Positions 31,424 to 39,778 of a stretch of 61,823 nucleotides of DNA are shown one piece after another. Under the pieces are notes generated by a model that saw only the letters and a program-made list of their open reading frames with translations, searched no databases and was not told where the DNA came from. Position 1 is the stretch's first letter; the number at the start of each line of letters is the position of its first letter. Made by a program: the position numbers and the translations under genes. The DNA comes from an uncultured Mycoplasmatota bacterium (GTDB lineage Bacteria > Bacillota_I > Bacilli_A > RF39 > UBA660), in NCBI GenBank assembly GCA_947649355.1, contig CANSRG010000002.1:1-61823 (forward strand), in the 5' to 3' direction.

Positions 31424-34400
31424 ATGGCAATTACTATAGATACTAAAGTTATTACAAATAGTATTACAGATTTAAATGAAATCTATAAGTATTATTCATC
31501 AAAAATAAGTGATTTTTCCAAAACTAGTTCTGCCAAAAAGCTTTCTAGTACTTTAGATGCAATTCGTAGTAATTACAAATGTATTGCTGAAAATACATTG
31601 ACTATTTCTAATTTTTTAGTTGATTTTTACAATGATATAAATGCTTTAGAATTTAAAATGAGTAATTCAGGAAATGCTTCTATTAGTGTTTCATCTGTTG
31701 CTTCTATTGTTTCAAAAACTTTTAATTCTATAGAAAAAAGCTCTATTTTATATGATAAAATATTTGACAATATTGAACTTGTTTCCTTTACTGAGACAGG
31801 AGTTACGGTAGAAGGTTTAAGTGATTTATCAATGTATAATTTTAGCGAAGAGCAAATCAATGCATTACTTTTAAATTTAGATACTAATAAGCCTTTAACA
31901 AAAGAAGAGAGTAAGTTTTTAACTGATTATTATAATAACATTTTAGTGGTGCAAAAACAAAAAGCTGTTGCAGAAGTTGAAATTGCTAGGGATGCTTATG
32001 ATAAATTGAAAAGTATTGAAAAAGAGTTAATGGGATATGATTATAATATTAACTCTATTGAAACAGCAATTTTAAATGCAAAAGAAATGGGAGATTATGA
32101 GACTCTTGAAAAATTAGAAAATATTATACAAAAAAGTGGTTTTAAAGATTTAGCATCTTACGAACAAGCCGTAGATGCAGCTTATCAAAATTTACAAATA
32201 AAAAATGCTCAATTACATGCGATTGAAAAAAGTTTAAAACAGCAATCTTATTTATTTGCGATGAGAGAAAAGGAATATCAAGATTTTAAACCTAATAATG
32301 TTGTAAATAAAGAAGCTATTAGTTCTATGATAGTATTTGATGAAGCTTCCAATACATTTAGTATTGATTATAAAGCTTATTGTAATAAATATGGTAATGT
32401 AGATCCATTTACTTTTTTAAAGATTGTTAAAGAACAGAATCAATATGCAATTCCAATCAATATAAAAGAGAGTGATTTATTAGAACGTTTATCTAAAGCT
32501 AGTACTTCTTCTACATTTCAAGAAGATTATTCTAATTATTATGTTTATCTTTATGAAACACAAGGAGTAGATTCTGCATTAGAATATTTAAATGCTATTG
32601 AAGAGGATATCAATCGTTATTGTGGTGAGTTAGATGCGAAAGAATTTTTTGATAGTTTGGCAGATTTAAATGATGAAGAATCAAGATTATTAGCAATCAA
32701 TAATCATTTAAGAACTACGACACAAGGTTTAGGATTAGGTGCAATTGGTAGTTTAGAAAATATTGGGTATTTAATGGAAGGTATTTTTTCTTCTAATGAA
32801 AATCGTATTTATAGTGATTTAGAATATCAAATGATGTACATTTCTCAGGGACTTGCTTCAGAGGAAGATAAAATCAATGCTGGATTAATTACAAAAGGAG
32901 CAGATGGGAAAGTTATAAGTGTTCCTGGTTTGATTGATTATACTGCTGATTATGGAAAATTTTTAGATATCAATTTTAATTTAAGTCAAAATATTGGTAA
33001 TATGTTACCTAGTATGGTTATGTCTACAGTTACTGGAGGTATAGCTGGAACGAATCAACTTGCTCAACTTTTTGCGGCTACTCTTAGTAAGGGAACTTTT
33101 GGACTTAGTGCAGCAGGAGGAAGTTTTCATACTGCTATGGTGGAAGGTCATGATAAAAATTTATCTTTATTATATGGTGCAATAAGTGGGTCTAGTGAAA
33201 TTTTGACGGAGTCATTACTTGGATCTCTTCCTTTTATGAATGATGTTAATGTTGTAGGATTTAAAACTTTTATGAAAGCTTCATTACAAGAAGGTTTTGA
33301 AGAATTTGTACAGGAGTATTTAGATGCTGCTGTAAGAACTTTTACTTTTAATGATCGATATCTAAAAGATGAATTATTTGATAATGCTTGTGTTTCTTTC
33401 ATGTATGGAATGGCTTCTGGTGGAATTATGAACTCTGGAAAATTGGTTTCTAATGTTCTTAGTTCTCAAAATGTGAAAAATCAAATTGCAGCTGGAAACA
33501 TTACTCAAGAACAATTAGTTTCTGAATTTCATAATCAATTTAAAGATTCTTTGGAAATGGATTTTAATGCTATTATGAAAAATAATACCAAAGCGGCAGA
33601 AGCGGTTGGAATGCAATTAGTAGAAAAAAACGGAAAAACAAAAGCAGAAGGTCCTATTAAATCTGCTTTGTCTGGTCTTGGTGTTTTAGGACTTGGTACT
33701 TCTTTTTTTGGAGGTTCTTCTAATGGAAATGGCTCTACTAGCAATAGCTCTTCTTCTTCAAATAATAATTCTACTGTAAGAAGAAATACTGCTATCAATA
33801 ATAGGAATAAAACCACTTCAAGTAAATCTGAAAATAAAACAGATAGCAAAGATTCTTTAACAAGTCAAAGAGAGCAACTTCTACGTGACAATCCAGGTTT
33901 AAAAGAATTAAATGATAGAGCTAATCTTGGTGTAGCAGTAAATGTTTCCTCGGATTTATCAGATGCTTTTTCTAGATTAAGACAATTAGATTCACAAATA
34001 AAAAAGAATGAGATTGATTTAACAAAAGTTAAGCAAGTAAATAGTGATTTTAAAGACGCAAAAACAATTTCTGACGTAGAAAATATTATTTCTCTAAAAT
34101 TAGATATGAAGCAAATATTAAATGCTGAAACGGTAAAGTTATTACCAAAGGCTTTGTTGGGTGCAATAGATATGTTAGGTTTTCTTGGAGCTCATTTTAA
34201 ATATGATTCTGTGTTAAAATCTGATGCTATGGTTCAAAAGATTGTAAATGATGGTCTTTATCATATAACTAGCATGGAAAATGTTCAAAAAATATTAGAT
34301 TCTGGTTATGTAAAAGCTGGTAATGTGATAAGTTCTTATGGTAATAAAAAATCTTTCTTTTTTGCTGGTACACCTGGGGTTGGAGATGTTGCTTCAAATA

Positions 34401-39778: not shown

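Follow-up and report, generated by a model that had tools for sequence, protein, structure and literature searches.

The stretch of DNA analysed here (61,823 nucleotides; hereafter the window) comes from an uncultured Mycoplasmatota bacterium (GenBank assembly GCA_947649355.1, contig CANSRG010000002.1, positions 1 to 61,823 of the forward strand) and contains a secretion locus with one giant gene (positions 31424..39778), which encodes a protein of 2784 amino acids (aa). On balance, this protein probably belongs to an undescribed family of polymorphic effectors, found in uncultured gut Bacilli, that leave the cell through a type VIIb-like secretion system (T7SSb). The export route is predicted from synteny, and the catalytic competence of the enzyme-like modules from conserved residues. 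The best supported view of the protein and its relatives is that they represent an undescribed family of giant effectors and a new architectural class; in the literature, no description was found of this effector family or of multi-enzyme T7SSb giants, and nothing of relevance on type VII secretion in Erysipelotrichaceae. All features of the locus and of the giant protein given below lie on the + strand.

The giant gene is a single open reading frame (ORF) without interruption, with an ATG start and an AGGAGG ribosome-binding site a few bases 5' of it; the GC content is ~27% and uniform along the gene. Four full-length alleles from independent assemblies are identical in length (2784 aa) and differ by 7-26 missense substitutions, with no frameshift and with none of the substitutions at a proposed catalytic residue. 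An earlier note on this DNA, made from the sequence alone, had described one uninterrupted ORF packed behind three small helical-protein genes downstream of essC, and both points hold; the gap before the giant ORF is 20 nt. The residues cited there were also found exactly as given, i.e. C1331, H1358 and D1373, HEIGH at aa 1790-1794, R2400, S2428-T-T and Q2470/E2472, H2577, H2609-D2610, H2653 and D2688/D2690, and the segment YHITSMENVQ at aa 946. HEIGH is the sole HExxH motif of the protein, and no internal repeats were found by self-BLAST. Judged by their invariance in homologues, the motifs of the giant protein exceed chance.

Homologues were collected by an exhaustive HMMER search with aa 901-2099, which yielded 373 proteins at E <= 1e-3, and a module map was made by placing the full protein onto the best 150 of these 373 matches, plus related loci. 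The latter (31 loci) were obtained by a genome scan with a head-plus-trunk alignment; almost all are from animal or human gut genomes labelled as uncultured Bacilli, Tenericutes or Erysipelotrichaceae. When the giant protein alone served as query, a genome scan found nothing, and word-indexed homology searches (full length, aa 1-800, and head-plus-trunk alignment) returned the query alone or nothing, likely due to low-complexity words filling the candidate list. Scans of 300-aa segments against Pfam and NCBIfam added only a motif-level match at HEIGH and a weak HYD1 match.

The N-terminal part of the protein (aa 1-765) is common to proteins of 1000-5100 aa in related gut Bacilli genomes, and consists of a head and a trunk. 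The helical head (aa 1-227; 31424..32104), the presumed secretion-targeting domain, is a separate matching unit in a 5100-aa relative (P0002) and in other relatives; D71, E76 and S80 are conserved in its alignment (A6), and a profile search of the PDB with the head gave unspecific coiled-coil matches only. The conserved trunk (aa 228-765; 32105..33718) shows 41 invariant columns in its alignment (A5), and is moderately hydrophobic overall with a hydrophobic helix at its end (743-766). It carries the Gly-rich amphipathic motifs NHLKVTGKGLG, SQSIGNMLPS, SAGGxSYHSAMVEG and SGxSExLxEK (motifs of this kind also read from the trunk are NHL.TTQGLGLG, SQNIGNMLPS and SAAGGSFHTAMVEGH), and no match to the trunk was found in Pfam, NCBIfam or PDB sequences. 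A Ser/Asn-rich low-complexity linker follows (aa 766-835; 33719..33928), which is seen in the translation and has equivalents in P0002 and in a 3396-aa relative (P0003).

Behind the linker, aa 901-2099 resolve into three modules (A, B and C), each of which is seen alone and inside other giants, in varying order; these are followed by an ADP-ribosyltransferase (ART) and an HD domain. The earlier note had counted four modules, and the count is revised here to five, the fifth being a stretch that was unrecognised at the time; the catalytic residues are invariant in all five. The survey of homologues for module shuffling that the note had called for was answered in the affirmative by the mapping. 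P0002 is colinear with the giant protein through module C, then has ~2400 extra residues, and then the same ART+HD end, and in P0003 the ART+HD block precedes module C. Module A stands directly after the trunk in most relatives and is sometimes duplicated; module B is the last recognised module in P0015, P0019 and one giant of locus L023, and module C in P0046.

The linkers between modules share a motif, Y-x-x-[LI][LI]-x-x-[NH]-P-x-[LV], with copies at aa 1155 and 2117 and a relaxed copy at aa 819 (DNA positions ~34886, 37772 and 33878, respectively). Further copies lie in the linkers of relatives (three in P0002, two in P0003, one in P0006), and the motif is expected 0.0055 times in a composition-preserving shuffle of the giant protein. 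It may mark a processing, cleavage or docking site.

The ART and the HD domain are the only two regions of the giant protein that score above curated family cut-offs, and both assignments, already made in the earlier note, are hereby confirmed. The C3/Vip2-type ART (aa 2363-2483; 38510..38872) matches ADPrib_exo_Tox (PF03496) at 4.2e-16 (59.3 bits; cut-off 23.4), with R2400, S2428 and Q2470-Q-E2472 invariant in 7 proteins. PDB profile matches were C3stau2 (1e-15) and Certhrax (3.6e-11), and also Plx2A, Vip2 and Listeria Lmo0066; the closest solved sequence is that of the C3 exoenzyme C3stau2, which has the segment QQE(L/V)LL.RGT in common with the giant protein. Compared with C3stau2, the substrate-recognition (ARTT) loop appears two residues shorter. 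ARTs of the QxE type also include enzymes that modify DNA bases and nucleic acids, so that a Rho GTPase target does not follow from the QxE motif. The HD phosphohydrolase domain (aa 2575-2693; 39146..39502) matches PF01966 at 2.6e-8 (34.6 bits; cut-off 22), with H2577, H2609-D2610, H2653 and D2688/D2690 invariant in 6 proteins, and gave PDB profile matches to the HD-like region of exopolyphosphatase (2.6e-3) and to YedJ (8e-3).

These two domains had been taken for two independent warheads; they are instead part of one block (aa ~2205-2765; 38036..39718) that is inherited as a unit (intact in P0002, P0003, P0004, P0013 and P0029) and has its own DUF4176-like partner gene. Relatives of the HD domain that carry no ART, either stand-alone or differently fused and of 183-1359 aa, were observed in gut and environmental metagenomes (L036-L111); since these other HD relatives carry no ART, the ART fusion appears specific to the T7SS-linked proteins. 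Tox-HDC, which was weighed as a possible forerunner of the HD domain, does not qualify, for it is a predicted H-D-C thiol peptidase and no HD phosphohydrolase (PMC3482391).

Modules A, B and C are three uncatalogued enzyme-like families, each with many homologues; their folds are proposed from motifs, weak profile matches and topology. For module A (aa 905-1135; 34136..34828), H947, K976, R1018 and D1022 are invariant and F979/F980 nearly invariant. The published signature of the Tox-ART-HYD1 family is H, [RK], [FY], [DE] (PMC3482391), and the first motif LYHxT with H947, K976, F979/F980 and D1022 fits this signature in order. Tox-ART-HYD1 was matched weakly by 14 of 24 module A members, with all matches below the cut-off (17.8 bits for the module; cut-off 25) and covering the first 41 of 97 profile positions only. 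The top PDB profile match is the DNA ADP-ribosyltransferase DarT (E 0.74), at LYHxT. The AlphaFold2 model of the module has a predicted local distance difference test score (pLDDT) mostly >90, and Foldseek returned the ART toxins TreX and TreTu as weak matches (E ~1.2). Module A is thus a probable second ART, of the H-Y-[DE] type, and the region at aa ~940-1060, in which no recognisable motif had been seen, belongs to a widespread module with weak but recurrent Tox-ART-HYD1 matches.

For module B (aa 1264-1565; 35213..36118), the triad C1331, H1358 and D1373 is invariant in 20 sequences, in the setting C..W, then H, then ADAT. Transglut_core (PF01841) was matched weakly by four of the 20 members (E >= 0.006), and the best Foldseek neighbours of the AlphaFold2 model (pLDDT mostly >90) are PNGase and the vasohibins, which have the transglutaminase fold, with weak scores (E 0.17-1.7); the module also carries its own C-terminal extension of ~150 aa. 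The triad of the earlier note therefore stands, and its placement in a transglutaminase- or papain-like family and fold is matched only weakly. Module C (aa 1670-2065; 36431..37618) is a candidate gluzincin-like metalloenzyme, with HExGH, an IDS motif, H1964 and E1979 (in FDEQFAD) invariant in 14 sequences. Its AlphaFold2 model (pLDDT 80.7) shows three strands, the HEIGH helix and then an all-helical body, a predicted arrangement that agrees with the gluzincin layout. No zincin was among the significant Pfam, PDB or Foldseek matches, and the best weak matches are an M34-like phage protein (E 0.46) and a SprT-like protein (E 0.98); of the proposed HEIGH metalloenzyme, the motif was upheld and the zincin fold was not recovered by structure search. 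Taken over the whole protein, Pfam placed the ART and HD domains above their cut-offs, and Foldseek left A, B and C with no significant fold match.

Stand-alone homologues of modules B, C and A were observed in L113, L114 and L116, near gidA/gidB and uvrB, a HAD hydrolase gene, and flavoprotein oxidoreductase genes, respectively. The stand-alone module A proteins have an N-terminal hydrophobic helix.

The window represents origin-proximal core chromosome of a spore-forming, low-GC Firmicute. The gene order before the locus is gyrA, the signal recognition particle (SRP) RNA, dnaX, recR, holB, pth, mfd, spoVT, a T-box leader and metG, and after the locus tatD, ksgA, yabG, spoVG, yabP, divIC and tilS. 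The interval between metG and tatD encodes, in this order, a DUF87 ATPase, a Zn-ribbon protein, a YukD-like protein, EssC, a WXG100-like protein, three small helical proteins, the giant protein, a 108-aa protein (p108) and a DUF4176 protein. The locus is headed by the DUF87/HerA-like P-loop ATPase (22151..24085; 644 aa; Pfam DUF87, 1.2e-18), an orthologue of which has the same position in L002. The small Zn-ribbon membrane protein (24189..24428; weak zinc-ribbon Pfam matches) has a C-terminal hydrophobic helix and its probable start at M42 of the ORF at 24066, and its gene is conserved in L002, L016 and L019, where it immediately precedes those for YukD and EssC. The YukD/EsaB-like protein (24371..24685) has a ubiquitin fold by assignment (Pfam YukD, E 0.0016, under the curated cut-off). 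EssC (24701..29299; 1532 aa) is an FtsK/SpoIIIE-type secretion ATPase, with Pfam FtsK_SpoIIIE at 1.3e-45 in two stretches and a weak FHA match, and full-length orthologues adjoin giant genes in related loci. The WXG100-like protein (29417..30061; 214 aa) has a WKG motif and matches Pfam WXG100 at 2.5e-7; it is ~2x the usual length, with the profile matching the N-terminal half only, and has an orthologue of similar length in L002.

The three small helical proteins comprise h98a (30246..30542; 98 aa), of WxG type with a WQG motif and a weak WXG100 match, h98b (30553..30849; 98 aa), which is without Pfam match, and h185 (30846..31403; 185 aa), which has an acidic tract; h98a and h98b are candidate targeting partners. 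Orthologues of h98a lie directly upstream of giants in L001, L002, L016, L019, L026, L117 and L118, h98b is co-conserved with h98a upstream of giants, and h185 accompanies both in L001, L002, L016, L019, L117 and L118. No match to the Lap families DUF3130 and DUF3958 was found among the three.

This arrangement is conserved beyond the window. In at least 18 of the 31 related loci, EssC adjoins the ORF of a trunk-bearing giant; at least 15 have a YukD homologue as well, and the other contigs are mostly truncated. The EssC/YukD arrangement beside a giant was also found in metagenome loci (L032, L033, L034, L050, L054 and L057), the three small helical genes recur upstream of giants and DUF4176 genes beside or downstream of them, and in L002 the entire order from the DUF87 ATPase through the giant is reproduced. 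Several related loci are flanked by metG and/or tatD (by both in L004 and L006). Because of this comparative genomic evidence from related loci, the link to type VII secretion is well supported; the same link had been proposed earlier, and it is substantiated by EssC, a weak YukD-like match, WXG100 and DUF4176 genes, and the synteny kept in related loci.

Tandem pairs of trunk-bearing giants were observed in L008, L020, L022 and L023, with a DUF4176 gene between them in L022 and L023; from these tandem giants, effector paralogues appear to expand within one locus. In L057, EssC is split into nine ORFs under genetic code 11 (7930-12480) and the ART+HD gene is fragmented as well, which may reflect either a different code (UGA for Trp, as in Mollicutes) or a decaying locus.

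The interval between the giant gene and tatD contains two DUF4176-family genes and no other ORF. The first, p108 (39782..40108; 108 aa), is DUF4176-like and specific for the ART+HD block: five of six homologues match PF13780 (best 9.2e-8), and a p108 profile matched the solved DUF4176 structure, PDB 9dcs, at 5e-4. In a survey that combined a metagenome scan with the ART+HD alignment and look-ups of the P0002 and P0003 loci, a p108 homologue was found near every ART+HD-bearing giant (eight distinct loci, including that of P0003 with its internal block). It lies directly downstream of the giant in six of these eight loci, and two small genes further in the P0003 locus; in L035, the ART+HD block is in a separate ORF. 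No p108 homologue was found in the 31 loci of the first scan, where one giant has an ART and none has the full ART+HD block. The second gene (40127..40489) encodes a canonical DUF4176 (Ltc-type) chaperone (PF13780, 1.1e-28), homologues of which adjoin giants in 11 of the 31 loci from the first scan, as well as in L032, L033, L057, L117 and L118. Experimental work has established that DUF4176 proteins serve T7SSb as toxin-specific chaperones, binding to a disordered amphipathic segment of the toxin (PMC12478183). The position of p108 and its co-variation with the block suggest an immunity protein; its membership in DUF4176 makes this role uncertain, yet tenable. As predicted from these family and neighbourhood relations, p108 could be either a block-specific chaperone or a DUF4176 fold recruited for immunity.

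Among known systems, the giant protein works most like an LXG toxin of T7SSb, such as TelA-TelD of Streptococcus intermedius and the YeeF/YwqJ group of Bacillus subtilis. It shares with these the EssC, YukD-like and WXG100 neighbours, an N-terminal helical region preceded by genes for small helical, putative partner proteins, adjacent DUF4176 (Ltc) chaperone genes, and variable, recombining enzymatic cargo; ART toxins also occur in the LXG class, and T7SS-linked ART toxins are known (PMC3482391). Yet it departs from that family in two defining respects: the giant protein has no detectable LXG domain, and in place of one toxin domain paired with an immunity gene it has five enzyme-like modules and no recognisable immunity gene. 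It also has its own ~540-aa trunk. LXG toxins are usually of 400-700 aa, compared with 2784 aa for the giant and up to 5100 aa for its relatives. The locus differs from a canonical T7SSb locus in that no EssB, EsaA or EssA was found among the + strand ORFs scanned in the window and a DUF87 ATPase is present.

The toxins of the MARTX family (Vibrio and relatives) are alike in logic, with a giant polypeptide, interchangeable effectors behind a conserved Gly-rich delivery region, and a module repertoire that is shuffled between strains, as it is in the giants. They differ in that they follow the type I route, whereas the giant's locus is of type VII in a Gram-positive organism, and there is no sequence similarity; no Peptidase C80 (inositol-hexakisphosphate-activated) domain and no MARTX repeats were found with Pfam at E <= 5. 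For the single modules, the ART shares the R, S-T-T and Q-x-E motifs with the C3 exoenzymes and with Vip2/iota-type ARTs (PF03496), from which it differs by its place in a T7SS-linked protein, always with a downstream HD domain. Module A resembles Tox-ART-HYD1 and DarT in LYHxT and signature, with weak matches below the cut-off, and module B resembles transglutaminase-like and papain-like enzymes in the ordered Cys-His-Asp triad, with no significant match. In other secretion contexts, polymorphic toxins that combine several toxin domains are on record (PMC3482391).

For the favoured reading, i.e. an effector exported through a type VIIb-like system, the following course would be conceivable. 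The head would pair with the three small helical proteins encoded upstream, and this complex would present the giant protein to EssC, as LXG toxins are presented with their Lap partners, while the two DUF4176-type proteins would keep disordered or amphipathic segments export-competent. After export, the Gly-rich amphipathic trunk might associate with or enter the target cell, where the C3-like QxE ART fused to the HD phosphohydrolase would act as the main warhead; the H-Y-[DE]-type ART, the transglutaminase-like Cys hydrolase and the HExxH enzyme may be further effectors, or cutters at the linkers. In this scheme, the delivering role of the trunk and the cutting role of modules B or C are conjecture only. 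A competing bacterium seems the more likely target, which is the least secure step: polymorphism, tandem paralogues and a block-specific partner gene in the usual immunity position favour interbacterial conflict, and a host target stays in play because of the C3-like ART, the gut habitat and the absence of recognisable immunity genes.

Several observations weigh against export by this route or against a toxic role of all modules. To our knowledge, there is no precedent for type VII export of a 320-kDa substrate. No LXG domain (Pfam PF04740) was found in the whole protein (E <= 1), in aa 1-300 (E <= 5) or in nine aligned N-termini (E <= 1), so that the protein is not detectably of LXG type, and an hhalign comparison of the head with the h98a family gave a probability of 21%, by which homology of the head to the small partner proteins is not demonstrated. 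No EssB/YukC, EsaA/YueB or EssA was found by Pfam among the + strand ORFs of >=80 aa between 6866 and 57424, and the locus has the DUF87 ATPase and the Zn-ribbon membrane protein instead; the missing components could be encoded elsewhere in the genome, or the locus may represent an atypical, reduced T7SSb apparatus. Foldseek gave no match at E <= 0.001 with the A+B two-domain model or the module C model. The three examined stand-alone homologues of A, B and C have housekeeping genes as neighbours and no T7SS genes in the vicinity, so that toxicity of these modules cannot be taken for granted. Finally, no immunity gene for any of the five modules was recognisable at the locus, where the sole candidate is the DUF4176-like p108; this is awkward for a kin-safe antibacterial toxin with five enzymes.

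An alternative that we regard as possible, if unlikely, is a host-directed, MARTX-like multi-effector: once exported by the T7SS, its trunk would insert in a eukaryotic membrane, the internal Cys protease and/or metalloprotease would free the ARTs and the HD enzyme in the host cytosol, and there the C3-like QxE ART would modify a Rho-type GTPase. No recognisable immunity gene lies between the toxin gene and tatD, and it has been argued that toxins encoded without one act on distant organisms, eukaryotes among them (PMC3482391). The closest solved ART is a C3 exoenzyme with the same QQE loop, the weak structural neighbours of module B (PNGase and vasohibin) are of eukaryote type, the relatives are almost all from animal or human gut genomes, and the recurrent motif at the module junctions could mark cleavage sites. 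However, the MARTX hallmarks (C80 domain, type I secretion genes) and any eukaryote-interaction domain were not found, wide shuffling of modules and tandem paralogues are what interbacterial polymorphic toxins typically show, the gene specific for ART+HD and located downstream of it resembles an immunity or chaperone pairing, and QxE ARTs that modify nucleic acids deprive the motif of any implication for Rho. A bolder form of the type VII reading, which we consider doubtful, is a distinct type VII subtype (EssC, YukD-like, Zn-ribbon and HerA-like proteins, without EssA/EssB/EsaA) that is specialised in the export of multi-effectors of 100-560 kDa, as a Gram-positive functional analogue of MARTX. 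It would include, at the same tentative level and jointly with the subtype itself, a Gly-rich trunk that serves as translocon, and Cys- and metallo-hydrolases that cut the linker motif and free the enzymes in the target, possibly a host.

A narrower antibacterial role, with ART+HD as the sole toxic part, p108 as its immunity protein, B and C as releasing peptidases and A as part of the delivery apparatus, seems rather improbable to us. The strict co-occurrence of p108 with the ART+HD block and the position of module A, which directly follows the trunk in most relatives like a conserved part, are in line with it, as are the stand-alone A, B and C homologues examined, which have no immunity-like genes next to them. 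In other polymorphic toxins, release is carried out by internal peptidase domains of the papain-like and metallopeptidase kinds (PMC3482391), which would suit B and C. On the other hand, module B (P0015, P0019, the L023 giant) or module C (P0046) can be the last recognised module, where a warhead usually sits, some giants have two copies of module A, P0003 carries its ART+HD block internally, and p108 belongs to a family of chaperones. Polyvalent proteins are giant proteins that join ARTs, peptidases and other enzymes, and a polyvalent protein of a phage or conjugative element, injected with the DNA to disarm recipient defences, would be superficially alike as a giant multi-enzyme protein beside FtsK-family and DUF87 (VirB4/HerA-like) ATPases. 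This origin is highly improbable: the locus occupies a core chromosomal position between metG and tatD with no relaxase, capsid or integrase gene inside, relatives hold the same chromosomal position, and YukD-like, WXG100 and DUF4176 genes are T7SS markers. A mobile-element origin is further disfavoured because tblastn of module A against a phage collection and of modules A-C against a plasmid collection found nothing. Still less credible is an assembly chimera or a pseudogene fusion, even though the junction of module C with ART+HD was found in the giant protein alone among the relatives examined. The four independent assemblies differ by missense changes alone, so that a chimera is unlikely and the reading frame appears maintained; the GC content is uniform across the ORF, and the remaining junctions are reproduced in P0002, with the A-B-C order. 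An assembly artefact, against which the earlier note had cautioned, is therefore unlikely.

Other features of the window comprise a 94-aa duplicate of the 5' part of yabG (42768-43052), with an intact 259-aa yabG at 57502-58281; the DNA similarity of the two copies stops near 43033 and 57767. The fragment is followed by genes for two large serine recombinases (43431-45020 and 45007-46572) and for a 3484-aa protein with dockerin and M26-peptidase N-terminal regions (46970-57424). The region 42768-58281 looks like a ~14.4-kb element that integrated in the sporulation gene yabG and carries a diverged replacement 5' end. The T-box leader upstream of metG (20318-20503) and the small SRP RNA upstream of dnaX (10259-10339) are ordinary.

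Models of T7SSb recognition and export build on the substrates known so far, which are either small helical proteins or LXG toxins that have one toxin domain. If truly exported, the giant family stretches accepted ideas of what the type VII pathway can carry, and Gram-positive bacteria would have evolved multi-effector toxins of their own, independently of MARTX. One toxin block is tracked by a DUF4176 subfamily, and this pairing offers a direct test of whether a chaperone fold can double as an immunity protein. Since the bacteria that carry the system are uncultured Bacilli from animal and human guts, it may matter for gut ecology or for host interaction.

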